Below, piece after piece: positions 7,086-60,414 of a stretch of 64,000 nucleotides of DNA. The stretch lies in the NCBI GenBank assembly GCA_944391085.1, contig CALXSE010000003.1, positions 54,143 through 118,142 of the forward strand, given 5' to 3'. The notes under the pieces were generated by a model. That model was not told where the DNA came from. It made no database searches and saw only the letters and a list, made by a program, of their open reading frames with translations. Positions within the stretch are counted from its first letter, which is position 1; every line of letters begins with the position of its first letter. The DNA is from an uncultured Kiritimatiellota bacterium. Its GTDB lineage: Bacteria > Verrucomicrobiota > Kiritimatiellia > RFP12 > DVOR01. The position numbers and the translations under genes were made by a program.

Positions 7086-7088
7086 ACT

Positions 7089-12447: not shown

Positions 12448-12469
12448 GCGGCCCCGCCGCGCTTCCCGC

Positions 12470-12501
12470 AAAGGCCCTTCGACAACCGCCGGAGGGCCTT
12501 T
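12470..12501 (+). terminator. Terminator-like hairpin plus T-tract after the PEP-CTERM gene
   Basis: AAAGGCCCT...AGGGCCTTTT. A second weak hairpin+T5 (GCCcttcgGCGtattttt) lies about 60 nt downstream. Confidence 0.5.
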
Positions 12502-12593
12502 TCATGCCCCCGCACGCGCCGCAACGCTTGCGCCGAAAGTTGCGCCGAGCGGCCAAAACCGCCCTTCGGCGTATTTTTCCGCGCAATTCCATC

Positions 12594-12618
12594 ACACTGA
12601 ACCGCAATCAGAAAACAC
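12594..12618 (+). promoter_or_regulatory. Recurrent motif copy A (CACACT-N5-CGCAAT-c-AGAAAACA), upstream of the first Fic gene
   Basis: catCACACTgaacCGCAATcAGAAAACAcgc. Related copies occur at 28293..28328, 58483..58512 and 58580..58592. Confidence 0.5.
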
Positions 12619-12633
12619 GCTTTTATCCCACTT

Positions 12634-12687
12634 CAACGCAATTTCCAAAAAATTGCGTTGAAATCCGCCCCGAGGTGTTGTATACTA
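12634..12687 (+). promoter_or_regulatory. Fic gene promoter with overlapping 27-bp palindromic operator
   Basis: CAACGCAATTT-ccaaa-AAATTGCGTTG (12634..12662) has perfect 11-bp arms. The right arm overlaps the -35 TTGAAA (12659-64). Seventeen nt on is the -10 TATACT (12682-87). SD and ATG follow at 12711. Confidence 0.55.
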
Positions 12688-12710
12688 GGCGGCGAAAGGA
12701 GGGCAAAGCG

Positions 12711-28328: not shown

Positions 28329-28488
28329 GAAGAAGAAAAGGGCGCACCAAGGAAACGAAAACAGCGCCGGCCTCACAACGCCTGGGAGCAACGCCACCAC
28401 CGCCTCCTGACACCTGCCATCCCAACTCCCCAAACGCATCCCCCGCCCGCCATCCGCTCCCCCCGCACCCCGAAAGGCCCCCCGACCC

Positions 28489-29076
28489 ATGACTTACGGC
28501 TACATCCGCGTCTCCACCGACAAACAGACCGTCGAGAACCAACGCTTCGAAATCAAGCGCTTCTGCGCCAGCCAGGGCCTCCGCGTCGACAAGTGGATCG
28601 AGGAGACCGTCTCCGGCACCAAGCCCTGGTCCCGCCGCCGCCTGGGCAAGCTCCTGCGCCACGCCCACGGCGGCGACCTCCTGCTCTGCTCCGAGCTGTC
28701 ACGCCTGGGCCGCTCGCTCTTCATGATCCTGGAGGTGCTCAACCACTGCCTCCAGCGCGACATCCGCGTCTGGACCGTCAAGGACAACTACCGCCTGGGC
28801 GACGACATCCCTAGCAAGGTCCTCGCCTTCGCCCTGGGCATCTCCGCCGAGATCGAACGCAACCTGATCTCCCAGCGCACCCGCGAGGCCCTCGCCCGCC
28901 GCCGCGCCGAAGGCCTCCCCCTCGGCCGGCCGCAGGGCACCCGCACGCGGCGCCTTGCCCCCCACCGCGACACCATCCGCCGCCTCCTCGCCCAAGGCAC
29001 CCCAAAGACCCGCATCGCCCGCCGCCTCCGCGTCAACGTCGAGACCCTCCGCCGCTTCCTCAAACTGGAGCCCTAG
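28489..29076 (+). CDS. Serine recombinase (resolvase/DNA invertase family, Hin/Gin/Tn3-res-like) with C-terminal HTH
   Basis: MTYGYIRVSTDKQTVENQRFEIKRF... carries the catalytic Ser-containing YxRVSTxxQ motif. At 195 aa with a C-terminal basic HTH (TRIARRLRVNVETLRRFL) it is typical of small serine recombinases. Confidence 0.85.
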   Translation: MTYGYIRVSTDKQTVENQRFEIKRFCASQGLRVDKWIEETVSGTKPWSRRRLGKLLRHAHGGDLLLCSELSRLGRSLFMILEVLNHCLQRDIRVWTVKDNYRLGDDIPSKVLAFALGISAEIERNLISQRTREALARRRAEGLPLGRPQGTRTRRLAPHRDTIRRLLAQGTPKTRIARRLRVNVETLRRFLKLEP

Positions 29077-38207: not shown

Positions 38208-39521
38208 TCACTTGCCCACGCAGAAGGCGGAGAAGACCCGGTCGAGCAAATCCTCCGTGTACGTCCGCCCCAGCACCCGCCCCAACGCCTCCGTCCCGGC
38301 CCGGAGCCACCCCGCCGCCGGCACCAGCCCGGCCTCCCCCCCGGCGAGGGCCTCCCCCGCCGCGTCGAAGGCCGCGCACGCCTCGGCCAACCCCGCGTGT
38401 TGCCGTTCGGTGGCCAGGGTCGCCGCGTCGGGCGCCTCCGCCTGCGCCCCCAAGGCCCCGCGCAGAAGCGCCTCCGCCGCGCGCCGCGCGCCCTCCGGGT
38501 CGGCCGTCGCCGAGATCCCCCCCCGGCCGGGCGCAAGGTCGGCCTTGGTGCGGAGCACAAGCGCCCCCTCCGGCACGTCCGCCGGGAGCGCCTCGCCCGC
38601 CGGCACCAGATAAAGCACCGCGTCCGCGCGGGCGATGAGCCCCCTGGCCCGCGCCACGCCCTCGCGCTCGACCGCCCCGGGCGCCTCACGCAGCCCCGCC
38701 GTGTCCGTCAGGCGCAACGGCACGCCGTCCAGGGAAAAGGCCTCCTCGATCGCGTCGCGCGTCGTCCCGGGCTCGGGGCTGACGATGGCCCGCGCCTCGC
38801 CCAGCAGCAGGTTCATCAGCGTGGACTTCCCCGCGTTCGGCGGCCCCGCGAGCACCACCAGCGCCCCCTCGCGCAGCAGTCTCCCCCGCCGCCACGTGGA
38901 GAGCAGCCCCCGGGCGCGCCCGGCCAAGGCCCCCAGGCGCGCCCGCGCCCCGGCGGCGAAATCGGGCGGCAGCTCGCCCTCGTCGAAGTCCAACAGGTGC
39001 TCCACGTCCGCCGAAAGGGCCAGCGCGTCGTCGTACAGCGGCCCAAGCGCCCCGGCCAGGCGGCCCTCCAGGTTGGCGCGGGCGGCCCGCTCGGCGCGCG
39101 GCGTCTTGGCGGCGATGAGGTCGGCCACGGCCTCGGCCTGCGTCAGGTCGAGCCGCCCGTTGAGGAAGGCGCGGCGCGTGAACTCCCCCGGCCCCGCGGG
39201 GCGCGCCCCCAGCAGGAAGAGCGCGTCGAGGACGCTGCGGGGGACGACCGGCCCACCGTGGACGCACAGCTCCACGGTGTCCTCGCCGGAATACGAATGG
39301 GGCGCGCGGTAAAACAGCAGGATGGCGTCGTCGAGCGCCTCGCCCCCCGGCCCCCGGAGCGTCGCGTAGGCGAAGGTGCCCGCGGGCCGCGCGGAGGGCG
39401 GCGGCCGCAGCCCCGGCGCCAGGCGGTCGGCGATGGCATAGACGCCCTCGCCGCTCAGGCGGATCACCGCCACGCCGCCCAACCCGGGCGCGGAAGCCAG
39501 CGCGGCGATGGGCTCAGCCAT
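38208..39521 (-). CDS. mnmE: tRNA modification GTPase MnmE (TrmE)
   Basis: N-terminal THF-binding domain, G-domain ([16 protein letters not shown]...DTAG...TKADL) and C-terminal FCVGK end motif. Confidence 0.9.
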
Positions 39522-41505
39522 GGAGGCTTTCCCCGAGGCAGACCCGGGCGTAGGCGCGGATGGCGTCCGCCGGCGTCTGGCGCGCGGGGACGGCGGCGGG
39601 CTCGCGGCCCAGGGCGCGGAGCGCGGCGGCGGTGGGCCCGCCCAGGGCGATGACGGGGACGCCCTTGGGCGCGGCGGAGGCGGCCCAGGCGCGGACGGCG
39701 CTGGACGAGGCCAGAAAGACGGCGTCGTGCGGCGGCGGCTCGGTCTCGGGCAGCCCGACGGTGCGGTAGAAAGGCAGATCCTTGACCTTCGCGCCGCGGG
39801 CCTTGAGCGCCTGGGCCAGCGCGGGCCCGGCCTCCTCGCTGCGGACGCGGAGGATCCTCATGCCGCCCAGATCCCCGGGCAGCGCGGCCAGCAGCCCCTC
39901 CGCCGAGAAGTCGCCCTCGGGCACAAGGGTGTCGATGTTCAGGTGCGCCAGCGCGGCGGCGGTGCCGGGGCCGGCGACGGCCAGGCGCTTGGGCAGGTAT
40001 TGGATGGGGCTGACCAGCTGCCGGAGCAGGAAACGCGCGGCGGTGGGGCTGGTCACGACCAACAGGTTGTAGGCCTTGCTCGGGCGGATCTTCACCGCGG
40101 CGGTCGCCTCGAAGCGCACCAGGGGCCGCACGACGGGCACGCCGCCCAGGTCAAGGATGGCCTCGCGCGCCTTCCCGGCCACGGATTCCGATCCGGTGAC
40201 CCAGACCCGCCGGCCGGCCAGCGGCCCAAGCGCGGGGAAGGCATGGCGCGCGGCCTCGCCCACCAGCAGCAGCCCGGGGCGCGACGGCGTCCGGGCGCGG
40301 AGCCCGGCGACCGTCCCGCGCCAGACCTCCTGCCCGGGGCCGAAGGCGTCGAAGACGACGGCGCAGGGGGTGTCCGGGGCGTAACGGCAGGCGACGTCGT
40401 CGGCCTGGCCCAGGGCCATGAACCAGACGTCGGTGGCCTCGGGGCCCGCCGCGCGGGGGGTGCCGACCGTGAAGCCGCGCCCGGCCCCGCGCCGCGTCAG
40501 GAGCATCCCGGTAGCGGCGGGGGCGGCGGCGAGGGCCGAGACGCCCGGCCAGACGCGGAAGGGGATGCCGTCCGCGGCAAGCGCGTCGGTCTCCTCGGCC
40601 AGGCGCCCGAAGATGCCCGGGTCGCCGCCCTTGAGGCGGACGACGCGCTGGCCGCGGCGGGCGCGCTCGCCGATGAGGGCGGTGATCTCGGCCTGGGGCA
40701 GGGCGTGCGCGCCGCTGCGCTTGCCCACGTACAGCCGCTCGGCCCGCAGGCCATCGAGGAGCGAGGCGTCCATGAGCGCGTCGTAGATGACCACGTCGGC
40801 GGCGCGGAGCTCGCGCAGGCCGGCGACCGTGCAGAGCCCGGCGTCGCCCACGCCCGCGCCGACGAAGCGCACGGCCTTGACGTAGAGGCCGCGCAGGGCG
40901 CGGAGGCGTCCGTCGCCGCGGCGGAAGGTCATCGCCAGAAAGCCCTGGCCGGGCGGCGGCGTGAGGGCGTCCAGGGGGATATACTCGGCGATGCGGCCGC
41001 GCAGGCCCAGGCGGTGGAGCGCGGCGGCGGCCACGACGATGGCGTCGTACTCGCCGCGGTCGAGCTTGGCCAGGCGCTCGGGGATGGCGCCGCGGAGGGT
41101 CAGCCGCTCGGCCCCGGGGAAGCGCCTGGCGCACCAGGCGTCGCGCCGGCCGCTGCTGACGCCCACGCGGCGCGGGTGCGCGGCGTCGCCCACAAGGCAG
41201 TCGCGCGGATCTTCGCGCCAGGGCAGCCAGAACCAGTCAAGCCCCTCGGGGAGGCCCCCGGGGGGGAGATCCTTGGCGGAGTGGAGGGCGCAGTCGATGC
41301 GGCCGGCGAGGAGGGCCTCGTCGAGGTCGCGCGTGAAGAAGTCGCCGGGGCTGGCGCGCAGGTCAGTGGCCTGGTCGCGGTCGCCGGGCGAGGAGAAGGG
41401 GATGGCCTCGAAGTCAAGGCCCGTCTCCGCGCGGAGCCTGGCGAGGGCGTCTTCGGTTTGGAGGAGGGAGAGCGCGGAATCGCGCGTGCCGCATCTCAGC
41501 TTCAT
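39514..41505 (-). CDS. Trifunctional fusion: HemC-like N-terminal domains / uroporphyrinogen-III C-methyltransferase (CobA/SUMT) / uroporphyrinogen-III synthase (HemD)
   Basis: Residues about 1-205 resemble HemC domains 1-2 ([51 protein letters not shown]). The middle is SUMT ([30 protein letters not shown]...[12 protein letters not shown]). The C-terminus is HemD-like ([14 protein letters not shown]...). Confidence 0.75.
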
Positions 41506-41517
41506 GCCGGGCTCCTT

Positions 41518-42822
41518 TCAGCGCGCGGGAGGGGGCAGGGCCGCGTAGGCGCGGTCGGCGGCGGCGCGGATGGCCTCGAGCGCGCCGGTGCGGCGGAGGT
41601 AGGCGCCGCGCAGGTCGTCCAGGTCGCGCACGCCCCGGTCGCCGCGGATGTTCCTGGGGGCGCCGAGGTCGAAGGCCGGCACGCCGCCGAGCGCCTCGGC
41701 CTCGAAGCAGGGCGCCTCGACGGTGAGCGCGGCGAGGAAGCGGTCGGCCCCGCGCACGGCCTCGCGCCAGCCGGCCAGGGGGCGGCAGTCCTCGCCGGGG
41801 AGCGGGGTGCGGTGGTAAAGGACGGTGACGGGCAGGCCGCGGGCGTGGGCCTTGGCGACGGCGGCGCGGCCCAGGCGCCCGGTGCCGGCGACGACGACGC
41901 GGCCCTTGGCGCCCTCGAGCGCGAGATCCTCGACCTCGACGTCCGGGATGAGGGGGGCGACGGCGGCGCGGACGGCCTGGGCGCGGCGGAGGGCCTCGGC
42001 GTAGGCGTCCAGCAGGTGGCCGCAGGCCCAGCCCCGCGCGCGGGCCTCCTCGAAGGCGTCGCGCACCTGGCCGACGATGTGGAACTCGCCGACCATCCTG
42101 GCGCGCATCCCCGCGAGCACCATCGTCAGGTGGCGCAGGGCGCCGTCCCCGAAGGCGGCCTTCGCGCCGGGCAGGTGCAGGGCGTGCGCCAGCAGGTCGC
42201 AGGCGACGAGCTCGGGCGCGGCCCAGGCGATGAGCTCGGTGCGGTTGCAGGTGCGCAGGAGGGCCCAGCCGTAGAGGCCGTTGAGGAAGGAGAGGCGCGT
42301 GGCCAGCACGTCCAGCGGCGGCAGCGGCGCGGCCTCCTCGGCGCCCAGCACATAAAGCCCGCCGGGGGAGACGCGCGCGAGGCTCTTGGCCAGGCCCTCG
42401 CGGACTTCCTTGGCGGTGCGGCAGCTGCGGCCGTCGGTGGAGACGGCGAGGGTCAGCCCCTCCAGGCGCAGGGTCGCCGGCACGATGAGGTCGCCCTCGG
42501 CCCAGTTGCCGTCGGCGCAGCAGCAGAGGACGGCGCGGGCGCGGGCGGCGGCCAGGACGGCGCGGTTGGCGCGCTTGTCGTCGGTGCAGGCGAAGGCCAG
42601 GCGGCACCCGGCCACGTCGTCGGGCACGAAGCAGCGCGCCACGCGCTCCACCGGCAGGGCGTCGAACTCGGCCACCGCCTCGGGGCAGACGAGGCGCACG
42701 CGGGCGCCGGCCTCGAGGAGGGCCCGGGCCTTGCGCAGGCCCACGCGGCCACCGCCCACGACGAGCGCCAGGGCGCCCTCGATGAGGAGGTTCGCGGGGA
42801 AGGTCTTGCGCACGGGCCGCAT
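41518..42822 (-). CDS. Fusion: precorrin-2 dehydrogenase/sirohydrochlorin ferrochelatase-like (SirC/CysG-N) domain + glutamyl-tRNA reductase (HemA)-like domain
   Basis: N-terminal Rossmann NLLIEGALALVVGGGRVGLRKARALLEAGARV and LAFACTDDKRANRAV match CysG-N/SirC. The downstream LLRTCNRTELIAW is the HemA catalytic-Cys motif, and VVVAGTGRLGRAAVAKA is the NADPH site. Start taken at MRPVRK (42822), overlapping the bioD stop; alternative start 42855. Confidence 0.65.
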   Translation of the reverse strand: MRPVRKTFPANLLIEGALALVVGGGRVGLRKARALLEAGARVRLVCPEAVAEFDALPVERVARCFVPDDVAGCRLAFACTDDKRANRAVLAAARARAVLCCCADGNWAEGDLIVPATLRLEGLTLAVSTDGRSCRTAKEVREGLAKSLARVSPGGLYVLGAEEAAPLPPLDVLATRLSFLNGLYGWALLRTCNRTELIAWAAPELVACDLLAHALHLPGAKAAFGDGALRHLTMVLAGMRARMVGEFHIVGQVRDAFEEARARGWACGHLLDAYAEALRRAQAVRAAVAPLIPDVEVEDLALEGAKGRVVVAGTGRLGRAAVAKAHARGLPVTVLYHRTPLPGEDCRPLAGWREAVRGADRFLAALTVEAPCFEAEALGGVPAFDLGAPRNIRGDRGVRDLDDLRGAYLRRTGALEAIRAAADRAYAALPPPAR

Positions 42823-43463
42823 CAGAGGCCCTCCAGGATGGGCAGCTCCAGCCACTCGGCGCCGGGGAACATCCCCTCGGCGACTCGCTTCAGGAAGGCG
42901 CGCGAATCCGCGTCGATGACCGGGTCGCGGCGGCCGGGCCAGGCGTTGTAGACGAATTGGGCGACCGTCGCGCCGCGCGCGGCGAGGGCCTCGAGGGAGA
43001 GCAGGGCGTGGTTGACGGAGCCGAGCGCGCCGTGCAGCACGAAGGTGAAGGGCCAGCCCCGCGCCACCGCGAAATCCACCGTCAGCAACCCGGGCCGGAG
43101 GGGCACCATGAGGCCGCCCGCGCCTTCCACGAAGACCTCGTCGTACCGCTCGCCGAGGGCACGGGCGCAGGCCTCCAGGCGCGCCGGGTCGATCTCCGCC
43201 CCGGCCAGGCGCGCGGCGAGGTGGGGCGAGCAGGGATGCGGGAAGATGTAGGGCGCGGTGAGGCCCTCCGCGTCCTCGGGGAGCGGCCCCACGCCCATCA
43301 TGGCGCGGTGGCGGGCGATGTCCTCGGAGGCGCCGGCGTTGCCCGTCTGCGCCAGCTTCATGGTGGCCGCGCGCCGCCCGGCGGCCAGCGCGCGCCGGGC
43401 CAGCCAGCCGGTGGCGACGCTCTTGCCCGCGTCCGTGTCAATCCCGCTCACAAACCGAATCAT
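42822..43463 (-). CDS. bioD: Dethiobiotin synthetase
   Basis: MIRFVSGIDTDAGKSVATGWLA (P-loop), VEGAGGLMVPL and GSVNHALLSLEAL align with E. coli BioD. Confidence 0.8.
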   Translation of the reverse strand: MIRFVSGIDTDAGKSVATGWLARRALAAGRRAATMKLAQTGNAGASEDIARHRAMMGVGPLPEDAEGLTAPYIFPHPCSPHLAARLAGAEIDPARLEACARALGERYDEVFVEGAGGLMVPLRPGLLTVDFAVARGWPFTFVLHGALGSVNHALLSLEALAARGATVAQFVYNAWPGRRDPVIDADSRAFLKRVAEGMFPGAEWLELPILEGL

Positions 43464-43512: not shown

Positions 43513-44397
43513 TCAGCGCCGCCCGCCGGGCCTGGCGAAGATGAGCTGGATACCGTTCCACGCGTTGTGGAAGAAGACGTAGAAGGCCGGCCCGAGCGCC
43601 GCGAAGGGCGCCCCGCACGCCAGCGCCAGGTAGACGGTGTAGGACGTGTTCTTCTGCCCCAGCAGCTGCGAGCACTCGTGCCAGCGCCGCCGCCCGCCCA
43701 AAAGCGCCCCCAGCGCGAAGAGCGCCACGCACAGCGCCAGGTCGATGGCGACCACCCACAGCACGTCCGCCCGCGGGTACTCCGCCGCGTGCTCCTCAAG
43801 CGTGCGCGACGCGCTGGCCGCGATGATGGCCACCAGGACGATCCACACGTAGAGCGTCGAGGGCGTCAGCGCGCGCCCCCACCGCCGCGCCCGCTCCCCA
43901 AAGCGCCGCCGCAGCAGGAGCGCCGCCGCGAAGGGCAGGAGCGTCACGAAGCAGACGCGCCCCGCGATCGCCGGCAGCGCCGCCCACGCGCTCTGGTGCA
44001 GCACCAGCGGGATGGCCGCCGGCAGCGCCGCGCTCACGCACAGCGCCCCCAGCAGAAAGCCCATCGAGCCGAAGGTGACGCTCCCCCCCAGCAGGCTGAT
44101 GATGACCGGCGCCGCGCTCGCCGTCGGCGTGACGGCCGTGAAGAAGGCCGCCTGCGCGAAGCGCTCCGGCACCCCGCACAGCAGCATCCCGGCCCACACC
44201 GCGAAGGCGCTGGCCAGATTCACCGCGATGACCAGCCAGTGCCGCCAGTGGATCGCCCGCGGCGTGAACTCCATCCGCAGGAAGACGGCCACCAGCATGT
44301 AGAAGAGGCACCACGGCATCAGCGGCCGCAACGCCGCGAGCCAGGGGCAGAACCACCCCAGCGCGAAGCACGCCACCAGCAGCACCGTGCGCAGCAC
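43513..44397 (-). CDS. Polytopic membrane transporter (BART/bile-acid:Na+ symporter-like superfamily, uncertain)
   Basis: 294 aa with about 8-10 hydrophobic helices. Family assignment is tentative. Confidence 0.5.
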   Translation of the reverse strand: MLRTVLLVACFALGWFCPWLAALRPLMPWCLFYMLVAVFLRMEFTPRAIHWRHWLVIAVNLASAFAVWAGMLLCGVPERFAQAAFFTAVTPTASAAPVIISLLGGSVTFGSMGFLLGALCVSAALPAAIPLVLHQSAWAALPAIAGRVCFVTLLPFAAALLLRRRFGERARRWGRALTPSTLYVWIVLVAIIAASASRTLEEHAAEYPRADVLWVVAIDLALCVALFALGALLGGRRRWHECSQLLGQKNTSYTVYLALACGAPFAALGPAFYVFFHNAWNGIQLIFARPGGRR

Positions 44398-44398
44398 T

Positions 44399-44698
44399 TC
44401 AGCGCCCCACAGGCCCGGCGTTCTTGCGGAACAGGAAGTAAAGCGTCAGATCCGTGCCCACCAGCGCCATGTCCAGCACGTACAGCCACAGCACGTAGGG
44501 CGCCAGGGCCCCCGCGTCCGCCCCGGGCGGGTTCAGCAGCTTGTGGACGACGCCGCAGAGGTACCCCGCCAGCACGATGACCATGAAGGCCGGGGACTTG
44601 CCGCGCACGAAGCGCGTCCGCAGCGACTTGGCGATGGAGGCCGGCCAGCTGCACCCGAAGGCCAGCAGCATCAGCGCCTCGAAGACCCACGCGCTCAT
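44399..44698 (-). CDS. Small 3-TM membrane protein (PQ-loop/SemiSWEET-like, tentative)
   Basis: 99 aa with three hydrophobic segments and a W-P-x-x-I motif after TM1. Tight spacing with neighbours suggests operon membership with exbBD. Confidence 0.4.
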   Translation of the reverse strand: MSAWVFEALMLLAFGCSWPASIAKSLRTRFVRGKSPAFMVIVLAGYLCGVVHKLLNPPGADAGALAPYVLWLYVLDMALVGTDLTLYFLFRKNAGPVGR

Positions 44699-50643: not shown

Positions 50644-51038
50644 CTCAAGGTCCGTCCATCTTTCCTCTTTCTTCGCTTCGGTCCTACAAGTGCGCAATTA
50701 CATTGTGGACGATTCAGCTTGACAGGGAGGGAACAAGTCTTGTAGCATTGGGGCAGATGGCGCGGGGCGTGCGCTTCGTCGGTTGGCGTTGGGCATGCTT
50801 TTCGGGGCCGGAGCTGATGCGTTTGCGCGTACGTTCGTTTCAGAGGGAACCATGGCCTTTCCAAGCCTGGGCGAAATGTGTCGCGGAGGCGCGCCCAAGG
50901 GGTGCTCCTTGGGGGTGTTTTCTCGCGTTGTGTTTCCAAGCGCGGTTGTGGGTCCTCTGAAGGACTTTGGGGGGAGCCTCACTGGTTGTTGTCTCTCCGT
51001 TTCGTCGTTGGTGTGAAAACAGGGATTGGAGAACGGTC

Positions 51039-54000
51039 ATGAAGCGGTTTGTCTTTTGGATTTGGGCGCTGTGTGCGGCGGCGCCGGGGTTTGCCGATCA
51101 GGTAACCATTGATGGGGTCACGTGGACGTACAGCGTCCGCTCCAGGGAAGGGGCGTCGTATGCGGTGATTGAGGAGGCCAGCGGGGTGCAGGGCGCGGTA
51201 ACCGTGCCGGCAACGCTGGGCGGGGCGCCGGTCACGGAGCTTGAAACCGGATTTTTCGGTATGAGCGGCGTCTTCTACGGATGCACCGACCTGACGGAGG
51301 TCCGCTGGGAGGAGGGGTGCGCGATCGAGAAGATCGGGGGGTATGCTTTCAGGGGGTGCACAAGCCTGACCCAGATCACGATCCCGCCTTCGGTGACGAA
51401 ACTGGGGAACCAGGCCTTCAGAGGGTCGGGGCTGGAGACCGTCACGATTCCGGGCACGGTGAAGACGCTGGGCGCAGAGGTCTTCGCGGAGTGCCCCGAC
51501 CTGAAGACGGCTGTCTTTGAGGAGGGGGAGCTGATAGGGGATAGTACGAGCTCTGTTGATTGGACGAATCTTTTCAGGAAATGTCCGGAGCTGGAGTCGG
51601 TGACGGTGAAACGATTGCCGTACATCAAGGAGGGGATGTTTGCCGATTGTCCGAAGTTGACCTCGGTGTCGTTGCCGGTGACGGTGTCTGAGATCATGGG
51701 AATGGCGTTTTCCCGGAGCCCGAATATCACCTTCACGCTCGATGCCGGGGTGACGAGATTCTCTGTCGAAAACGGAATGCTGCGCTCCGCGACGGGACTC
51801 TATTATGTGCCGGGGGACCCCGAACGACTGGAAATCCCGGACGGGATTACCGATATTCTCGGCGGCATCTGCCGGGGGATGACGAACCTGCGCGAGGTGA
51901 CCGTGCCCGACACGCTGAAATCCATCGGCACGTATGCTTTCTACGGGTGTGCGTCGCTGGAGGAGATCGATCTTTCGGGAACGCAGGTGGCGGCACTGAC
52001 GGAGAGCGCCTTTGCGAATTGCCCCGCGCTGGCATGGGTGCGCCTGCCGGCGACCGTCACGTCGTTCGAGATCGGCAAGACCTTCGACGGTTCGCCGAAT
52101 GTGCGCTTTGAGGTGGCGGAGGGGAGCAAAACCTTTGCCTCGGACGAACAGCACGCGCTTTACAGCAAGGATATGACGATCCTTTTCCTCGGCCCCAATG
52201 CGGCATCCTTCACGGTGCCTGAGACGGTGACGGCTATCGCCCCTTATGCCTTCGACGGCCGCGCCGCGCTGACGTCCATCACCATTCCGGCGAGCGTCAG
52301 AGACTTCGGGTATGATGTCTTCCGCGGGTGCACGAATCTGGCGTCGGCGAACGGGCTCTGGCTTGATGCGGAGCAGACGACCGTGCTCGGGATTGACGCG
52401 GGAGAGACCGCGGTCGCCGCGGAAGATTTCCCGGAGACCGTCTGGCGCGTGGCCGATTACGCCTTTTATGAAAACACGTCTCTGAGCTCTGTTGTCTTCC
52501 CCCAAAAAGTAACCTCCATCGGGGCTTCCGCTTTTTACTATTGCGGCAATCTGGGGAGCGTGACCTTCGCCGAGGGACTTGAGGAGATTCGGGACGGGGC
52601 CTTTTACGGTACCGGCATCGGCGGGGAGCTCAATTTGCCCGCCACGCTGATGCACCTCGGGGATCGGGCGTTCGGCTGGACGTTTATAACAGAGGTGAAG
52701 ATGGGCGGCGAGCCGGGGCTGCGCGATGACCCGAATCTGACGCTCGCGGGAAACCCTTTTTCCGAGTGCGAGTGCCTGCCTGTGGATCCCGAGACATGCA
52801 TCATGTATGAGACTGCCGTCGCGAACGGTCCCCGCGTGGTTGTCGGCGTCGGTGAATATCATGACGAGACCACCGGCTACACGCACTATAATGTCCGGGT
52901 GTCGGATCTTGTCTTTCCGGAGAGCGTTCGCTACATCCTCAGTGGGCTTGACATCAGTGATAGCCCGAGAACCATCACGACCACGGGGCCAATCTACAGC
53001 GTTGGGAGCGCCGCCTTCATAAGTCCGACTGCCAAGGTGCACACCATCACCTTCGGCGGCAATGTGGGCGTGGTGGAATCGAAGGCCTTCTATGAGCTTC
53101 CGTATCTGCAGGTGCTGACTTTCAAAGGAAAAGTCGGTACCATCCGCAGCAATGTCCTCTGGGGGACCCCTCGCAGTCTGACGGAGGAAGGCAGCCTTTC
53201 GATAACCTTTGAAGGGGACGTCGGCACGATTGAGGCAGGCGCCTTCGACGCCACTACCAGCCAGGAATCCAACGTGTACGGATGGTCCCCTTTAAAGGAG
53301 CATCTCACCTCGGTGACCTTCGGCGGAACGATCGGCACTATCGGAGAGGATGCCTTTCGCGGGTGCTCCTCACTGAAGACCCTTGCCGGATGCAAGCCGG
53401 CGAACCTTGGCGCAAGAGCTTTTTACAATTGTCAGGCGCTGACGGAGGCTCCGGACCTGAGCCTTCTGAGCGAGGTGCCGCAGGGCGCTCTGCTGAACTG
53501 CTTGAACATAAAAGCGGTCGACGCCGGTGCGGCGACGGTCATCGGACCCTCAGCTTTTCAGGGATGCGTGTCGCTCGTCTCGGTGAACGCCCCGATGGCG
53601 GCGACGGTGGGAAAGAGCGCCTTCAAGATGCTGCCCAAGAGCGGCGGCGGTTGGGCTACGGCCCTGACGGAGGTGACGCTGGCCGAGACCGTCACGCTCG
53701 GCGCGGAGGCCTTCAGCGGATGTGCCGAGCTGACGGGACTGAAGACCGCTTCCGGCGGTGAGCCGGTGGTGACGTTGGCGACGTCCGTCTTCGGCGGATG
53801 CGCCAAGCTCACCGGTGTCACGCTTAATCCGGCCACGACGGAGATCCCAAGTGGCGCTTTTTCCGGATGCGCGGCCATGACCGCCTTCCCCTGGCCGGCC
53901 AATATCAGAATCATCGGAGGTTCCGCCTTCAGCCGCACCGGCCTTACGGGAGAGCTGAACCTGCCCGCCACGGTGGAGAAGGTCGACTACTATGCCTTTG

Positions 54001-57000
54001 ACGGGTGCAAGGGTCTGACCAAGATTACGCTTAATTCCGCGCCGGAGCTGCTCACGCCCTTCTCCGGGTGCTCCGGCGTCACGGAGGTCGTCTATACGTG
54101 CGATGTGCCGGAGCTTCCGCGGGTGTGGGACGGCCTCACAGGCCTGACTTCCTTCACGGTGAACGGCGATATCGGCACGTCGGCGAATTTTGCGCTCTCG
54201 GATTGCGACAGCCTGGAGACGATGACGGTGAAGGGCAATTGGGGGACCGTCGCGGCCGGAACCTTCTATGACCTTAGCAAGTTCACGACGCTGACCGTCA
54301 CGGGCACCGTCGGCGCCGTCGGCGACTCGGCCTTTATGGGGTGTACGGCGCTGACTTCGGTGCCAACAATCGGCGATGCGTCCCTTGAGGGGGCCATCGG
54401 CAACTCTGCCTTCCAAGACTGCTCGAGCCTGGAATCCGTCACGCTCGACCGCGACATCCGCGCCATCGGCAACTACGCCTTCCGTGACTGCACAGGCCTC
54501 AAGACCGTCTCGATCTTGGGCGATCTCCGCACGATTGGCACCTATGCCTTTTCGGGCTGCACGGCGCTGAACAATCTGACGCTGCCGACCTCGCTGGTCT
54601 CCATCGGCGACTACGCCTTCCAGAACTGCAACGCGCTCCCAAAAGACGCTGACTACATCTACACCTCGGCAGACAAGACGGTTATTCTGAGCCGGGTTTC
54701 GTCATCGCCCAAGCTGACCACGCTCAGCATCCCCGAGGGCGTCACCATGATCGGCCCCAGCGCGTTCGCCTCGGAATACAATCTGACGTCGCTGACGTTG
54801 CCTTCGACCCTGAAGGCCATCGCCAACAGGGCCTTCTATAATTGCAACAAGCTTACGAAGGTCACCATCCCGGCCGGTGTCGTGACCATCGGCGACTATG
54901 CCTTCCAGAGCTGTTCCAAGCTTGCGACGGTGACCTTTGAGCCGGAGAGCCAGCTGGCAACGATGGGCAAGGGAGCCTTTTCCAGTTGCAGTGCGCTCAC
55001 GGGCTTCGCCTTCCAGCCCGGGGTGACGGCCATCGCCGACAGCCTCCTGAGCGGATGCGGCAAGCTGGCGGCGGTGACCTATGAGCCGGGCTTTGCGCCG
55101 GAGTCGATCGGGGCAAGCGCCTTCAGCGGCTGCACGGCGCTCTCCGCGCTGCCTATCCCCGAAAGCGTGACCGTCATCGGCGACTATGCCTTCCAGAACT
55201 GCGACGATTTGACGGAGATGGGCATCCCGGAATTGGTCACGGCCATCCCGGACAACTGCTTCAACAACTGTGACGGCCTCACCGCCGTGACCTTCGGGGC
55301 GCAGGTCACGTCCATCGGAGCCTCCGCCTTCTATGGATGCGCCAAGCTGACCACGCTGCCGGCGGCGGATGCCGATGGCATCGTCATCCCGGAGACGGTG
55401 ACCACCCTCGGCGAAGAGGCCTTTTATAATTGCAAGGCCGTGACGAAGGTTACCTTGCCGGATGTCATCACCGAGATTCCCGAGTCGCTCTTCTATAGGT
55501 GTGCCGCGCTGGACACGGTCAAGCTGGGTTCGACCGTGACAAAGATCGGCGCCTCCGCCTTCCGGAACTGCACGGCGCTGGAAAGCATCGAACTGCCCGA
55601 CACGCTGACCACCTTGGGATCGTCGGCCTTCAGCGACAGCGGACTGACCTCCGTGACCCTGCCGGACGGACTGACGAAGCTGTCCTATTACGGGTTCTCC
55701 GGGTGCAAACGGCTCGCTTCGGTGACGCTGAGCCCGGATACCGTCGCCCTCGACACGGGGACCTTCTACGGGTGTACGGCTCTCACGGCCATCACCCTGC
55801 CCGCGGGGGTCACGGAGATCCCTCAGGCCGCCTTCATGAACTGCACCGCGCTGGAGACCGTCACGCTGGAGGGAGTGTTGACCAAGATCGGCTATCAGGC
55901 TTTCAGCGGTTGCCCATCGCTCCGCTTCGCGATTCCCGAGACGGTTGTCGCCATCGGCGGACAGGCCTTCAAAGGGTGCGCGGCCCTTACGGAGATCAGC
56001 ATCCCGGAGGGCGTCACGGAGCTGGCGGCGAATGTCTTCCAAGATTGCGGCGGCCTGACGGAAGTCACCATCCCGGCCACCGTCGGGAAGTTCAACGCGA
56101 GCGCCTTCGCGGGGTGCGACAGCCTCACGACGGTGACGCTCGGCGGATCGCCCACCGCCGTGCCGAATGCGATGTTCGACGGCTGCACGGCGCTGACCAC
56201 CATCCGTCTGCCGGACTCCGTCACCACCATCGGCGACTCCGCCTTCCGGAACTGCACGGCGCTCACCTCCATCGATATTCCCCCCCGCGTGACCAAGATC
56301 GGGACCTACGCCTTCCAAAAGTCCGGCCTGACCTCTGTCGTCGTGCCCGACACGGTGACCTCGCTGGGGACCTATACCTTCCAGGGCTGCGCGGCGCTGA
56401 CCTCGGCCACCGTCGGCGAGGGCGTCGCCACGATCGGCAACTACACCTTCGGCGACTGCACGGCGCTCACGAAGGTGACGCTGCCGGCCGACCTGAAGGA
56501 GATCGGAAGATCCGCCTTCTACGGATGCACGGTGCTCACGGCCATTGACATTCCCTCCGGCGTGACCAAGGTCGGGAGCAACGCGTTTGAAAAGTCCGGT
56601 CTGATCGCCGCCGTCCTGCCCGACACCGTGACCTCGCTGGGAACCTATGCCTTCCAGAACTGCACGTCGCTGACTTCGGTGGATGTCGGCGCGAGGCTTA
56701 CGAAGCTCGACACCCGCACTTTCTACGGATGCACGGCGCTCGCGGAGGTGACGCTGCCGGCCGGCCTGAAGGAGTTCGGGAGCAGCGCGTTCCAGAACTG
56801 CACGGCGCTTGATGCCATCACAATCCCCGAGGACGTAACCAAAATCGGGAGCAGCGCGTTCCAGGACTGCACGGCGCTCTCGGAAGTGACGCTGCCGGCC
56901 GGTCTGGAGGAGATCGGGAGCAGCGCGTTCCAGAACTGCACGGCGCTCTCGGCCATCATAATCCCCGAGGGTGTGACCACCATCGGAAACTACGCCTTCA

Positions 57001-58181
57001 AGAACACCGGCCTGACGTCCGTCTCGGTGCCCGGCTCGGTGACCTCGCTGGGGACGTATGTCTTCCAGAATTGCACGGCGCTGACCTCGGCCGCCTTCGG
57101 CGAGGGCATCAACGCGATCCCCAATTACACGTTTTACGGATGCACGGCGCTCTCGAAGGTGACGCTGCCGGCGACGCTGACGGAAATCGGCGCTAACGCC
57201 TTCAACGGATGCACGGCGCTCACGGCCGTCACAATCCCCTCCGGCGTGACCAAGATCGGGAATTACGCCTTCCTGAAGTGCGGCCTGACGTCCGTCTTGG
57301 TGCCCGGGTCGGTGACCTCGCTGGGGATGTACGTCTTTCAGAATTGCACGGCGCTGACCTCGGCCACGCTCGGGGAAGGGATCACGGTCATCCCGAGCAG
57401 TACCTTCTACGGGTGCACGGAGCTGGCGGCCGTCACGTTGCCGGACAGCGTGACCACCGTCAATTCCAACGCCTTCGGGAACTGCAGGAAACTGGTCTCG
57501 CTCACCATCCGGGGCGATGTGCCCACTTCGGTGAACAGCTACGCCTTCCCCACGGGGAATTATCTGGCCGAAGGCGCCACGCTTTATTACCCGGCCGCGC
57601 AGGAAGCGGCGTGGAAGGCGGCGGCCGACGCGGACGGCAAATGGAAGGGCTTCACACTGGCCGTGCTCGCGGCCGTGGCCATGCCCAACGTCCCCGACGG
57701 CGCGGCAGGTTACACCGACATGGCCGTGCTCGAACGCCTTCAGGCCGCCGCCTTGGAGGCCGGCATCACCGACGGCACGTTCGACGTCTTCCGCCAGAAC
57801 AGCGACGGCACCGTGGTTCGGGAACTCCTCGCTCCGGCGACCGTGGAGGATGCGCTGAACTGCTTTGCCGGTCTTGAGCCGGTGGCGGTCACGCTTGAGG
57901 ACGGGACGGCCATGGTGGTCCTGCCCTATACCTTCGACGTCTGCGGCATCTCCGTCGAGGCGTCGGAGGTCGTCGTCACGGTCAAGGTCGAAAGCGGCCT
58001 TCCCGAGATGCCCCTGACCTTCGCCGAGGGCATCGCCTATGCCATTGTGCCCACCACGGAGGGCACCGCGCCCGTCGTCACCGTGCGGGAAGTGGCCGGC
58101 GACACCGCCACGCTGGCGTTCACCCCGCCGGAGGGACACTCCACCTACCTCTTCAAGGCGTCGGTTTCGCCTCTTCGGTAA
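51039..58181 (+). CDS. Giant (2380 aa) secreted BspA-type leucine-rich-repeat surface protein
   Basis: Signal peptide MKRFVFWIWALCAAAPGFA. It has dozens of about 22-aa BspA-like LRR units (IPxSVTxIGxxAFxxCxxLTSVTLP), with higher-order near-identical repeats of about 88 aa (264 bp) in the C-terminal half, and a non-repeat C-terminal domain. SD GGAGAA precedes the ATG at 51039. The track ORF starts 24 codons earlier. Confidence 0.85.
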   Translation: MKRFVFWIWALCAAAPGFADQVTIDGVTWTYSVRSREGASYAVIEEASGVQGAVTVPATLGGAPVTELETGFFGMSGVFYGCTDLTEVRWEEGCAIEKIGGYAFRGCTSLTQITIPPSVTKLGNQAFRGSGLETVTIPGTVKTLGAEVFAECPDLKTAVFEEGELIGDSTSSVDWTNLFRKCPELESVTVKRLPYIKEGMFADCPKLTSVSLPVTVSEIMGMAFSRSPNITFTLDAGVTRFSVENGMLRSATGLYYVPGDPERLEIPDGITDILGGICRGMTNLREVTVPDTLKSIGTYAFYGCASLEEIDLSGTQVAALTESAFANCPALAWVRLPATVTSFEIGKTFDGSPNVRFEVAEGSKTFASDEQHALYSKDMTILFLGPNAASFTVPETVTAIAPYAFDGRAALTSITIPASVRDFGYDVFRGCTNLASANGLWLDAEQTTVLGIDAGETAVAAEDFPETVWRVADYAFYENTSLSSVVFPQKVTSIGASAFYYCGNLGSVTFAEGLEEIRDGAFYGTGIGGELNLPATLMHLGDRAFGWTFITEVKMGGEPGLRDDPNLTLAGNPFSECECLPVDPETCIMYETAVANGPRVVVGVGEYHDETTGYTHYNVRVSDLVFPESVRYILSGLDISDSPRTITTTGPIYSVGSAAFISPTAKVHTITFGGNVGVVESKAFYELPYLQVLTFKGKVGTIRSNVLWGTPRSLTEEGSLSITFEGDVGTIEAGAFDATTSQESNVYGWSPLKEHLTSVTFGGTIGTIGEDAFRGCSSLKTLAGCKPANLGARAFYNCQALTEAPDLSLLSEVPQGALLNCLNIKAVDAGAATVIGPSAFQGCVSLVSVNAPMAATVGKSAFKMLPKSGGGWATALTEVTLAETVTLGAEAFSGCAELTGLKTASGGEPVVTLATSVFGGCAKLTGVTLNPATTEIPSGAFSGCAAMTAFPWPANIRIIGGSAFSRTGLTGELNLPATVEKVDYYAFDGCKGLTKITLNSAPELLTPFSGCSGVTEVVYTCDVPELPRVWDGLTGLTSFTVNGDIGTSANFALSDCDSLETMTVKGNWGTVAAGTFYDLSKFTTLTVTGTVGAVGDSAFMGCTALTSVPTIGDASLEGAIGNSAFQDCSSLESVTLDRDIRAIGNYAFRDCTGLKTVSILGDLRTIGTYAFSGCTALNNLTLPTSLVSIGDYAFQNCNALPKDADYIYTSADKTVILSRVSSSPKLTTLSIPEGVTMIGPSAFASEYNLTSLTLPSTLKAIANRAFYNCNKLTKVTIPAGVVTIGDYAFQSCSKLATVTFEPESQLATMGKGAFSSCSALTGFAFQPGVTAIADSLLSGCGKLAAVTYEPGFAPESIGASAFSGCTALSALPIPESVTVIGDYAFQNCDDLTEMGIPELVTAIPDNCFNNCDGLTAVTFGAQVTSIGASAFYGCAKLTTLPAADADGIVIPETVTTLGEEAFYNCKAVTKVTLPDVITEIPESLFYRCAALDTVKLGSTVTKIGASAFRNCTALESIELPDTLTTLGSSAFSDSGLTSVTLPDGLTKLSYYGFSGCKRLASVTLSPDTVALDTGTFYGCTALTAITLPAGVTEIPQAAFMNCTALETVTLEGVLTKIGYQAFSGCPSLRFAIPETVVAIGGQAFKGCAALTEISIPEGVTELAANVFQDCGGLTEVTIPATVGKFNASAFAGCDSLTTVTLGGSPTAVPNAMFDGCTALTTIRLPDSVTTIGDSAFRNCTALTSIDIPPRVTKIGTYAFQKSGLTSVVVPDTVTSLGTYTFQGCAALTSATVGEGVATIGNYTFGDCTALTKVTLPADLKEIGRSAFYGCTVLTAIDIPSGVTKVGSNAFEKSGLIAAVLPDTVTSLGTYAFQNCTSLTSVDVGARLTKLDTRTFYGCTALAEVTLPAGLKEFGSSAFQNCTALDAITIPEDVTKIGSSAFQDCTALSEVTLPAGLEEIGSSAFQNCTALSAIIIPEGVTTIGNYAFKNTGLTSVSVPGSVTSLGTYVFQNCTALTSAAFGEGINAIPNYTFYGCTALSKVTLPATLTEIGANAFNGCTALTAVTIPSGVTKIGNYAFLKCGLTSVLVPGSVTSLGMYVFQNCTALTSATLGEGITVIPSSTFYGCTELAAVTLPDSVTTVNSNAFGNCRKLVSLTIRGDVPTSVNSYAFPTGNYLAEGATLYYPAAQEAAWKAAADADGKWKGFTLAVLAAVAMPNVPDGAAGYTDMAVLERLQAAALEAGITDGTFDVFRQNSDGTVVRELLAPATVEDALNCFAGLEPVAVTLEDGTAMVVLPYTFDVCGISVEASEVVVTVKVESGLPEMPLTFAEGIAYAIVPTTEGTAPVVTVREVAGDTATLAFTPPEGHSTYLFKASVSPLR

Positions 58182-58592: not shown

Positions 58593-58827
58593 CACAGCCT
58601 CTGAACGCTCCCCCCAGGCGCGTTGTTTATGCGGCACACACGATGGGCAGAGAGGCCCGAACGCGCTTCTGCAAGGTCGTCGCGCCGGGTTGCCCCACCA
58701 CCCGCACCCTGCCGGAACACGCCACACCCCCCTCCCAAATCCGTAAGTCTTTTTTCGCCGAAACCCCCATTTGTAACTTTTTTTGCCCGTTTGTAACTGT
58801 TTTCGTTTCCCGCCCAAACGCCCGCTC

Positions 58828-58856
58828 TTGTCGAATTGCCCACGCTGTGGTAAATT
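58828..58856 (+). promoter_or_regulatory. Sigma70-like promoter for second Fic gene
   Basis: TTGTCG (58828-33), 17-nt spacer, TAAATT (58851-56). It lies 50 nt upstream of the proposed ATG at 58906. Confidence 0.45.
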
Positions 58857-58905
58857 GTTGTGCGTTTTGAGGGGCCATTTCCGATCCCTCCCCCGTAAGC
58901 GTTTG

Positions 58906-60414
58906 ATGAAAGCGGAACCGCTAGGCTATCTGTTTTTGATTGAGGCGTTCGACTTGGACGTCCTTGCGCCCTTGTGCCAGACCTTCTGCGGGGAAGGGGC
59001 TCAGCGGCAGGAGCGGGTCGCCGGCGCCACCACCACGCGCTTCCTGCCGCCGAGGGCTTGTCACCCGGCAACCTGGCAGCATCAGCTGGACTTCGCGCTG
59101 AAACAGGAGGGCGTGAACCTCGAGGTGCTGCGGGCCTTCTTCGCCAAGGTGCCCGAGCAGGCGTTAGCCGATTATGTCGCGGCGCGTTCCGTCGGCATCT
59201 ACCGTCGGCGCGTCTGGTTCCTCTATGAGTTCCTCACGGGGCGCGAATTGCCCCTTCCCGCCCTGCGGCAGGGCAACTACGGCTTTGTCTTGGATCCGGA
59301 GGCCTATGTGGCGCGCGCCCGGGAAGATTCCCCCCGCGCCAAGCGCCAGCGCCTCTTCAACAACCTGCCCGGGGTGGCCGATTGCTGCCCCATGGTGCGC
59401 CGGACCGCCAAAATCCGCCACGAGGAGGCCGACGATTTGGCGGCGCAGGTGCGCAAGGCCCTGAATCGTTATCCCGCCGAGCTGTTGGCGCGAGCGAACC
59501 GTTGGCTGCACCTCAAAGAGACCAAGGCTTCCTTCGCCATCGAGCATGCCTCCCCGGATCGACGACGCGAGGCGGCTTTCCTGGAAATCCTGGCGCAAGC
59601 CGGTTCGGAGCCGCTGACCAAGTCCCTTCTCCTGCGTCTGCAGAACGCCATCGTGGACCCGCGTTACCGAGAGGAGGACTACCGCGACGACCAAGTCTAC
59701 GTCGGCGAAACCCTGCGCTCTGGCAACGAGCTTGTCCATTTCGTCGGCGCGCGCCCCGAGGACGTGTCAGGGCTCATGGAGGGCCTTCTCACGGTGGCCG
59801 ACCGCCTCACGCGGGGCGATACGCACCCATTGGTCGCAGCCGCCGCCGTGGCCTTTCTCTTTGTCTTCATCCACCCCTTCAATGACGGGAACGGCCGCCT
59901 TCACCGTTACCTGCTGCAACACATCCTCGTCGCCAAAGGCTTCATCCCCGGTGGCACGGCCTTTCCCCTCTCCGCCGTCCTCCAACGCGACCCCACGCGC
60001 TATGACGCGATGCTGGAGACCTTCTCCAAGCGCCTCATGGGGCGCGTGGACTACGCGCTCGACCCGCAAGGCCGCATGACCGTGCGCAACCCGACTGCGG
60101 ACTACTATCGCCACATCGACCTCACCCCCATCGTCGAAGCGCTCTTCGACGTCGCGCGCGAAACCCTGCGCAAGGAACTGATCCCCGAGCTCAGCCACCT
60201 GATGCTGTGGGACGACATCCAAGCCCGCTTCCGTGCCATCGTCGACATGCCCGACGCCCGCGCCCAACACTTCGCGCGTCTGGCTCTCCAAAACGGCGGC
60301 ACGCTCGCAAAGGCACGCCGAGGCGACTTCCCCGAGCTGACAGACGACGAAGTTGCCACCCTCGAACAAGCCATCGCCCAAGCCCAAGCCACGCTGCCCG
60401 TCCCCGCGCCGTGA
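58906..60414 (+). CDS. Fic/DOC family protein (second copy; different architecture from 12711..14045)
   Basis: Fic motif HPFNDGNGRLHRYL. A putative inhibitory-helix variant is KASFAIEHASPD (E retained, G/N replaced by H). Start placed at MKAEPLGY (58906) because a TTGTCG-17-TAAATT promoter (58828..58856) lies inside the longer track ORF that begins at 58783. Confidence 0.8.
   Translation: MKAEPLGYLFLIEAFDLDVLAPLCQTFCGEGAQRQERVAGATTTRFLPPRACHPATWQHQLDFALKQEGVNLEVLRAFFAKVPEQALADYVAARSVGIYRRRVWFLYEFLTGRELPLPALRQGNYGFVLDPEAYVARAREDSPRAKRQRLFNNLPGVADCCPMVRRTAKIRHEEADDLAAQVRKALNRYPAELLARANRWLHLKETKASFAIEHASPDRRREAAFLEILAQAGSEPLTKSLLLRLQNAIVDPRYREEDYRDDQVYVGETLRSGNELVHFVGARPEDVSGLMEGLLTVADRLTRGDTHPLVAAAAVAFLFVFIHPFNDGNGRLHRYLLQHILVAKGFIPGGTAFPLSAVLQRDPTRYDAMLETFSKRLMGRVDYALDPQGRMTVRNPTADYYRHIDLTPIVEALFDVARETLRKELIPELSHLMLWDDIQARFRAIVDMPDARAQHFARLALQNGGTLAKARRGDFPELTDDEVATLEQAIAQAQATLPVPAP

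Follow-up and report, generated by a model that had tools for sequence, protein, structure and literature searches.

The DNA analyzed here, a 64-kb stretch of contig CALXSE010000003.1 (assembly GCA_944391085.1) from an uncultured Kiritimatiellota bacterium and hereafter called the window, has a GC content of ~70% overall and carries on its minus strand the gene order bioD-like, sirC-hemA, hemC-cobA-hemD and mnmE, all four genes being translationally coupled. The two central genes, referred to as gene B (the SirC-HemA fusion) and gene A (the HemC-CobA-HemD tri-fusion), are the subject of this study, and their coordinates are collected in Table 1. The textbook cofactor of hydroxymethylbilane synthase (HMBS, HemC) is a dipyrromethane linked to a cysteine on domain 3 of the enzyme. 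Gene A encodes HemC domains 1 and 2 only, with a conserved active-site cleft and with neither domain 3 nor its cysteine. The parts of these fusions are known families; what is new is the coherent and widespread clade of HemC proteins to which gene A belongs, lacking domain 3 and its cysteine and fused to pathway partners in two alternative ways.

Gene A, the ATG of which is preceded at 6 nt by an AAGGAG Shine-Dalgarno sequence, matches three Pfam families in succession: PF01379 (Porphobil_deam) at residues 3–201, covering profile positions 1–205 of 207 with 164 bits against a cut-off of 22.1; PF00590 (TP_methylase) at residues 214–400 with 115 bits (cut-off 27.8); and PF02602 (HEM4) at residues 448–649, profile positions 5–230 of 231, with 111 bits (cut-off 27.5). 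The middle module, a CobA-type S-adenosylmethionine (SAM)-dependent uroporphyrinogen-III methyltransferase (SUMT), contains both SAM-binding motifs, GxGxGD and GGDP, is matched by CysG/SUMT structures at E 1e-35, and scores highest with TIGR01469 among the methyltransferase subfamilies, the next being CobM/CbiF at 101 bits. AlphaFold2 models of genes A and B were made from homologue alignments, and that of gene A reached a predicted local distance difference test score (pLDDT) of 90.8 and a predicted template-modeling score (pTM) of 0.90. In Foldseek searches, the N-terminus of this model superposes on E. coli HMBS (1pda) over 211 columns with a root-mean-square deviation (rmsd) of 2.3 Å and 39% identity, and its middle part on CysG/SUMT. 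The HemC-like, CobA and HemD assignments made in an earlier, sequence-only reading of this DNA are thus borne out by the three Pfam families and the structural matches, and the domain hidden Markov model (HMM) scan proposed there as a check scores the N-terminus as HemC and returns no PF03900.

PF03900, the Pfam family of HemC domain 3, matches nowhere in gene A. The HMMER alignment pairs residues 3–205 of gene A with residues 6–216 of E. coli HMBS and then ends, and the linker between the HemC and SUMT modules measures ~10 residues, versus the ~90-residue domain 3 of canonical enzymes. With the glycine motif of SUMT starting some 10 residues after the end of this alignment, there is no space for a diverged domain 3, and one hidden in so short a linker is ruled out. 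A domain-3 HMM was then built from 33 full-length HemCs, 30 of which have Cys in the column of E. coli Cys242; as positive controls it detected proteins outside the building set at E 1e-15 to 1e-29 and ~40 canonical hemC loci of other phyla. Applied to all frames of the window and of the related loci L001–L006 this HMM found nothing (best E 0.12), and it found nothing either in six-frame translations of loci L007–L021, the loci carrying a short HemC being searched to 6–10 kb around the gene. A domain 3 encoded nearby in trans is thereby ruled out for the window and for L001–L021, and the DUF2061 open reading frame (ORF) upstream in L004, considered as a candidate, is unrelated. Domain 3 is truly absent from the short HemC: the earlier claim that it is missing together with the cofactor cysteine holds, given the short linker and an HMM with working controls that finds nothing.

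The active site is kept. The residues of E. coli HMBS that bind the pyrrole carboxylates and catalyze deamination and condensation map onto gene A (E. coli/gene A) as R11/R8, S13/S10, Q19/Q16, K83/K78, D84/D79, S128/S117, S129/S118, R131/R120, R132/R121, R149/R138, R155/R144, R176/R165, Q198/Q187 and G199/G188. Across 120 homologues, the listed best matches, which are 46–99% identical to the gene A protein, conservation of each of these cleft and catalytic residues is 97% or higher, and alignment A1 (63 sequences) shows most of them without variation. Gene A thus shares with canonical HMBS (E. coli 1PDA, human HMBS) domains 1 and 2, the catalytic Asp, the Arg/Ser/Lys/Gln cleft and the operon place between hemA and hemD, whereas it differs in having neither PF03900 nor the dipyrromethane cysteine and in being fused to other enzymes of the pathway. 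The lid loop differs as well, reading GDRD..DLR.SP.DFFT(R/K)DLD in the short clade versus GD..LD..L..GGKGLF.KELE in canonical enzymes.

No cysteine takes over as a general anchor. The alignment of the 120 tri-fusions has no invariant Cys column, and in five of the proteins the HemC part is free of Cys. The best-kept candidate, Cys225 in the SUMT module, is present in 108 of the 120 (90%); the other 12 carry L, I or A at this position and have no compensating Cys in common. CobA-HemD partners from Planctomycetota likewise have Ile, Leu or Ala there, as do the forms from Victivallales, Omnitrophota and Paludibacter (L013, L020, L021). Since no Cys is conserved in cis, the primer is probably held without the canonical thioether.

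Gene B joins a SirC-type domain to glutamyl-tRNA reductase (GluTR, HemA). A longer ORF from a GTG at 42855 is unlikely to mark its start, because homologues measure 430–434 aa. The N-terminal part matches PF13241 (NAD_binding_7) with 82 bits and TIGR01470 (cysG_Nterm) with 71.0 bits, above the cut-off of 62.3, and aligns to CysG residues 15–146, the equivalent of CysG D104 included; G23, G25 and D104 are invariant. Foldseek places it on the N-terminal part of CysG (139–148 columns, rmsd 2.1–3.1 Å, 32–35% identity) and also on SirC and Met8p, and PF14824, the central dimerization segment of such proteins, stays below threshold (18.6 bits vs 25). Its competence as a SirC dehydrogenase/chelatase is putative. 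The catalytic GluTR domain that follows matches PF05201 (GlutR_N) with 55.7 bits (cut-off 27), and T191, C192 and R194 of this domain do not vary among 51 homologues. GluTR structures (5che, 4n7r, 1gpj) match gene B at E 1e-14 to 1e-16, the Arabidopsis and Methanopyrus matches spanning 318–344 columns. The C-terminal Rossmann domain gives no PF01488 match and a weak Pfam match to 2-Hacid_dh_C, and the isolated GluTR nucleotide-binding domain 3oj0 fits there at TMt 0.73; relatives of 480–500 aa have PF01488 and lack PF00745. The GluTR dimerization domain, PF00745, is absent from gene B by Pfam, and the chain stops two helices past the Rossmann domain. With an AlphaFold2 model at pLDDT 91.4 and pTM 0.80, Pfam, TIGR01470 and Foldseek confirm both the SirC plus HemA assignment and the catalytic motif LLRTCNRTEL pointed out before. 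As an observation apart, the SirC domain has four nearly invariant cysteines, C79, C100, C101 and C134 (in ACTDD, CCCADGNW and GRSC); they flank the residues equivalent to CysG D104 and S128, and a metal or cluster site is a possible role. As a trans cofactor donor this cluster was set aside, its pattern not being kept in the Planctomycetota-type fusions described below.

Each of the 120 listed best matches of gene A shows the three-domain Pfam set of gene A, again without PF03900. When the HemC part was searched against 1.8 billion cluster representatives, ~85 tri-fusion representatives preceded the first canonical HemC, and the short-HemC clade as a whole comprises ~100 clusters at 50% identity in two fusion topologies, which points to a large and old group. 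In the second topology, a protein of ~700 aa, the short HemC is appended C-terminally to SirC-HemA (P0198, P0200, P0207 and others, from Planctomycetota- and Armatimonadota-labeled metagenome-assembled genomes (MAGs)), and some proteins are SirC-HemC(short) alone (P0224); these belong to the same clade and are likewise without PF03900. SirC-HemA-HemC(short) fusions share with the window genes the overall gene order and a SirC-HemA without dimerization domain and differ from them in the fusion boundary, the short HemC being joined upstream in the Planctomycetota type and downstream, to CobA-HemD, in the window. The C-terminal short HemCs extend 15–20 residues past domain 1 and close with a conserved tail without Cys, PLDLGDRxGLPWA (x = E/R; L004 8001..10145, P0198–P0270), a peptide onto which the next enzyme might dock. 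In a neighbor-joining tree of domains 1 and 2, a single split has all 37 full-length sequences on one side and 97 of the 98 short forms on the other. These relations fit a scenario in which domain 3 was lost once and fusion then took place at one or the other boundary of an ancestral sirC-hemA / hemC / cobA-hemD order. Two further fusion variants were seen, P0389 (690 aa) and P0378 (622 aa): SirC with a full HemC (PF03900) and HemD, and SirC with a full-length HemA with PF00745.

A scan of GTDB species representatives with the tri-fusion alignment gave 14 genomes with domains 1 and 2 and no domain 3, in each of which the short-form ORF is 2.0–2.2 kb long or is the contig-truncated start of one. 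Twelve are labeled Verrucomicrobiota, Lentisphaerales, Lentisphaeraceae, Lentisphaerae, Victivallales, Kiritimatiellia/Kiritimatiellae or ‘bacterium’, one Omnitrophota and one Paludibacter sp. Over the clade the labels are mainly Kiritimatiellia, Lentisphaerales, Victivallales and Planctomycetota, with single MAGs of Omnitrophota, Armatimonadota and Bacteroidota, and apparent stand-alone short HemCs of ~240 aa are for the most part fusions cut off at a contig end. Full-text literature searches found no description of an HMBS without domain 3 or of such a tri-fusion. The earlier remark that the arrangement is not commonly described therefore stands for the literature searched, whereas in sequence databases the arrangement is common (120/120 listed best matches, ~85 clusters at 50% identity).

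Gene context in relatives puts the short form in the place of hemC. In the Planctomycetota-labeled loci L004 and L005 the order is PAPS (3′-phosphoadenylylsulfate) reductase (cysH), NIR_SIR sulfite reductase, a ThiI-like gene, DUF2061, SirC-HemA-HemC(short), CobA-HemD, HemB (ALAD) and HemL (Aminotran_3), with metY/metX/metW-like genes next in line. Judged by its gene content, this is a complete glutamyl-tRNA-to-siroheme operon beside a siroheme-dependent enzyme, with the short form as its only HemC. HemB and HemL directly follow HemC(short)-CobA-HemD in eight of the 14 genomes (L007–L011, L017, L020, L021), and a SirC-HemA match precedes in six of those eight (L007–L011, L017). The ~40 canonical loci, from Actinomycetota, Clostridia, Chloroflexota, Chthoniobacterales, NC10 and others, have a hemC of 0.9–1 kb with domain 3, next to a hemA/sirC match in 40 of 43 loci and to hemB in 13 of 43. 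As the neighbors are of the same kinds, the short gene is the positional orthologue of canonical hemC. The pair of genes A and B is itself kept together down to 39–48% identity, and mnmE is next in order at loci L001 and L002 as it is in the window. The Planctomycetota loci, with a short HemC beside NIR_SIR sulfite reductase and PAPS reductase, support the sequence-only reading in its proposal of a compact siroheme branch; for a link to the siroheme-dependent (Ahb) heme pathway, also suggested there, we have evidence neither for nor against, and the window has no ahb genes.

Fusions of these enzymes are known in several forms. CobA-HemD bifunctional proteins occur in Desulfovibrio vulgaris, Clostridium josui, Selenomonas ruminantium and Lactobacillus reuteri, and a HemC-HemD fusion in Leptospira. 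The former have the same two C-terminal modules as gene A in the same order, to which gene A adds HemC domains 1 and 2 at the N-terminus, and the Planctomycetota relatives retain such a two-domain CobA-HemD downstream of the short HemC. CobA-HemD (SUMT fused to uroporphyrinogen-III synthase, UROS) has been listed as a frequent fusion, along with HemC-HemD (PMC4921024). HemC-HemD proteins, and HemC-CobA-HemD proteins of Firmicutes, likewise join the producer of the unstable hydroxymethylbilane to its consumer. The Firmicutes tri-fusions (L041, Blautia MAG, 3812..6301, 830 aa; L052, Eubacteriales MAG, 5983..8388, 802 aa) have their three modules in the order of gene A and, unlike gene A, keep domain 3, which is seen in L041 with its cysteine visible (LNGGCTSP), in L052 by the domain-3 HMM (E 3e-17), and by PF03900 in P0218. 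Fusion and loss of domain 3 are thus separate events, since the tri-fusions of L041 and L052 retain that domain. CysG (Salmonella 1PJQ) and SirC/Met8p resemble the window genes in the SirC-type Rossmann domain with the D104 equivalent and in siroheme as end product, and the SUMT module is 40–45% similar to CysG(A). CysG fuses the dehydrogenase/chelatase to SUMT, whereas the window fuses the dehydrogenase/chelatase to GluTR and SUMT to HemC and HemD.

NCBIfam also holds a ‘hydroxymethylbilane synthase’ equivalog model of 241 positions, NF002202 (PRK01066.1), which is too short for domain 3. Gene A matches its positions 20–225 with 106.2 bits against a cut-off of 251, far below the score for membership, which is ruled out for the gene A protein; other short forms score 111–169 bits. 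NF002202 probably describes the short HemC of chlamydiae, presumably without the Cys, and its length suggests that another lineage of the Planctomycetota-Verrucomicrobiota-Chlamydiota (PVC) group also has a HemC without domain 3.

Table 1. Positions of genes, modules and single codons in the 64-kb window
Feature	Position	Strand	Size, evidence or remark
Gene A, HemC(domains 1-2)-CobA/SUMT-HemD	39514..41505	-	663 aa; ORF, Pfam, NCBIfam, AlphaFold2
HemC-like module, residues 1-207, domains 1 and 2 only	40885..41505	-	PF01379, 1pda alignment, Foldseek
Asp79 codon (catalytic Asp84 of E. coli HMBS)	41269..41271	-	Invariant, as is the neighboring Lys78
SUMT (CobA) module, residues 212-420, GAGVGD motif	40246..40872	-	PF00590
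Cys225 codon, N-terminal SAM-loop motif GAGxGxxxxCT of SUMT	40831..40833	-	Leu in Salmonella CysG
HemD (uroporphyrinogen-III synthase) module, residues ~431-655	39541..40215	-	PF02602
Gene B, SirC-HemA	41518..42822	-	434 aa; ORF, Pfam, NCBIfam, AlphaFold2
SirC/CysG-N-type Rossmann domain and short central segment, residues ~14-149	42376..42783	-	PF13241, TIGR01470
GluTR catalytic domain, residues ~155-302	41917..42360	-	PF05201
Catalytic Cys192 codon (TCNR)	42247..42249	-	
GluTR NADPH-binding domain (AGTGRLG) and two terminal helices, residues 303-434	41521..41916	-	Foldseek, secondary structure
bioD-like gene	42822..43463	-	213 aa; PF13500 (AAA_26), 98 bits
mnmE (tRNA modification GTPase)	38208..39521	-	8-nt overlap with gene A
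Pfam-negative ORF	43513..44445	-	
Pfam-negative ORF	44399..44698	-	
Large ORF running off the window end	3..7088	-	2362 aa
Fic/DOC-domain protein	12267..14045	+	592 aa
Serine resolvase	28411..29076	+	
BspA-type leucine-rich-repeat protein	50961..58181	+	2406 aa
Fic/DOC-domain protein	58777..60414	+	545 aa

The bioD-like gene, which encodes a dethiobiotin-synthetase-like ATPase, lies directly upstream of gene B and is translationally coupled to it, its stop codon and the ATG of gene B overlapping as TGATG. In at least 14 relatives (among P0281–P0312; 60–77% identity, 652–745 aa) the bioD-like domain is joined in frame to SirC-HemA, a fusion that may reflect mere loss of the stop codon. Downstream of gene A, mnmE, the ATG of which overlaps the gene A stop by 8 nt, appears to belong to the same transcription unit, judged by position alone. 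Pfam scans of ~40 ORFs covering the window found no hemB, hemL, ahbABCD, cbi, full hemC or sulfite/nitrite reductase; as no further tetrapyrrole gene was found there, hemB, hemL and the siroheme client enzymes are placed elsewhere in the genome.

Between the bioD-like gene and exbD/exbB lie two Pfam-negative ORFs with strong coding signal, the product of the longer of which resembles a multi-pass membrane protein. Elsewhere in the window, the large ORF at one end has a GC content at third codon positions (GC3) of 0.94, a strong coding signal and zero Pfam matches. The BspA-type protein has 22 LRR_5 stretches, and the GC content around its gene is 0.62–0.65 versus ~0.70–0.77 elsewhere in the window, so that the gene may have been acquired horizontally. 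Two large Fic/DOC-domain proteins and a serine resolvase complete these observations.

On balance, we favor the reading that genes A and B form a siroheme/precorrin-2 core with a probably active two-domain HMBS, the primer of which is held without the canonical thioether. The two coupled genes would provide the core of the pathway from glutamyl-tRNA to siroheme (precorrin-2) in a high-GC bacterium of the PVC group. Gene B would supply GluTR at the entry to the pathway and, at its exit, a SirC-type precorrin-2 dehydrogenase, perhaps with chelatase activity too. SirC domains are normally dimeric, and the one in gene B probably stands in for the lost GluTR dimerization domain. Gene A would unite HMBS, UROS and the SAM-dependent SUMT in a single chain, HemL and HemB being supplied from elsewhere in the genome. 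Such an arrangement would permit local handover of the unstable hydroxymethylbilane and of uroporphyrinogen III, channeling being the accepted rationale for fusions of tetrapyrrole enzymes (PMC4921024). We infer from the conserved cleft that the HemC module is probably a genuine, active two-domain HMBS, in which the primer, either dipyrromethane or the first porphobilinogen units, would most likely sit noncovalently in the cleft of conserved Arg, Ser and Lys residues or, alternatively, be anchored via a further partner.

Several points weigh against this reading. In the canonical enzyme the Cys-linked dipyrromethane is deemed indispensable, and activity without that cysteine would be a surprise, because the C242S form of the E. 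coli enzyme has essentially no activity. Three of the modules fall short of their NCBIfam equivalogs: the HemC module scores 152.3 bits with TIGR00212 (hemC), below the cut-off of 164 and with the alignment ending at profile position 209 of 293; the SUMT module 159.3 bits with TIGR01469 (cut-off 185); and gene B 40.4 bits with TIGR01035 (hemA) versus a cut-off of 209.55. The C-terminal helical domain of SirC/CysG(B) (PF14823, PF10414) is not detected in gene B by Pfam. The neighbor-joining tree carries no support values, and mean identity is 0.40 between the two short subtypes versus 0.41 between the C-terminal subtype and full-length HemCs. Finally, the search reached over the 64-kb window and flanks of 6–10 kb in relatives, and a canonical hemC or a stand-alone domain 3 could lie beyond.

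That limited reach also leaves room for the strongest alternative, in which the short HemC is half an enzyme: either domain 3 with its cysteine is provided in trans by a small protein of its own, or a canonical full-length HemC encoded elsewhere does the catalysis while the fused module captures or channels pyrroles. Canonical enzymology, which requires the Cys-linked cofactor, argues for it; the pTM of 0.90 shows the module packed against its partners, so that docking of a further piece is conceivable, and the Cys-free tail of the Planctomycetota forms could serve as the docking peptide. We nevertheless consider this alternative unlikely. Neither the window nor 20 short-form loci contain a domain-3-like ORF, whichever frame is read, the operons are otherwise complete and self-contained, and purifying selection on the catalytic Asp and the cleft residues would not be expected of a channeling module that works beside a catalytic paralogue.

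Improbable, in our view, is the option raised in the sequence-only reading that the HemC-like part is a noncatalytic remnant or a regulatory porphobilinogen-binding domain that makes no hydroxymethylbilane. The loss of the cofactor-bearing domain and the score under the hemC equivalog cut-off would fit such a remnant, whereas the conservation of the domain 1–2 catalytic constellation over 46–99% identity contradicts it. So does the position of the module, which holds the canonical hemC slot in complete operons with hemA, hemB, hemL, hemD and cobA and with no other hemC, operons that would be functionless without an HMBS. A clade as large and old as this one appears to be, with its ~100 clusters and two topologies, is likewise hard to reconcile with a remnant. 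No better are the chances of a cofactor bound covalently in cis to a relocated cysteine such as Cys225, or to another nucleophile, although one other than Cys is still conceivable. The Cys that replaces the CysG Leu in 108 of the tri-fusions invites this idea, which as a general solution is rejected on the 12 tri-fusions without Cys225 and without a common compensating Cys, on the five Cys-free HemC parts, on the lack of any invariant Cys column and on the absence of Cys225 from other short-HemC lineages (the Planctomycetota CobA-HemD, L013, L020, L021). An artifact of sequencing, assembly or gene calling, that is, a frameshift or deletion that removed domain 3, is suggested by the unusual architecture alone and is refuted to the point of being negligible by the uninterrupted, high-GC3 frame of gene A and by the recurrence of the same domain set in all 120 listed best matches, from many samples and sources, and in 14 species-representative genomes.

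The findings bear on annotation, pipelines variously labeling these proteins ‘hydroxymethylbilane synthase’, ‘uroporphyrinogen-III C-methyltransferase’ or ‘NAD(P)-dependent oxidoreductase’. They also present one ancestral gene order, sirC-hemA, hemC, cobA-hemD, as fused at boundaries that differ by lineage. A wider claim, to which we give less than even weight and which we put forward tentatively, is that the clade makes all of its tetrapyrroles with a two-domain HMBS that lacks a covalent dipyrromethane, the primer being held noncovalently in the cleft or the chain starting from free porphobilinogen, and the product passing directly to the fused or neighboring UROS. All heme, chlorophyll, siroheme, B12 and F430 pass through hydroxymethylbilane synthase. 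A clade that keeps the cleft of this enzyme and has no cofactor domain, in operons that are otherwise complete, would imply either another way of priming the polymerization or an unrecognized partner protein. If the clade is truly cofactor-free, it would overturn the Cys-linked cofactor as a universal requirement of hydroxymethylbilane synthases.

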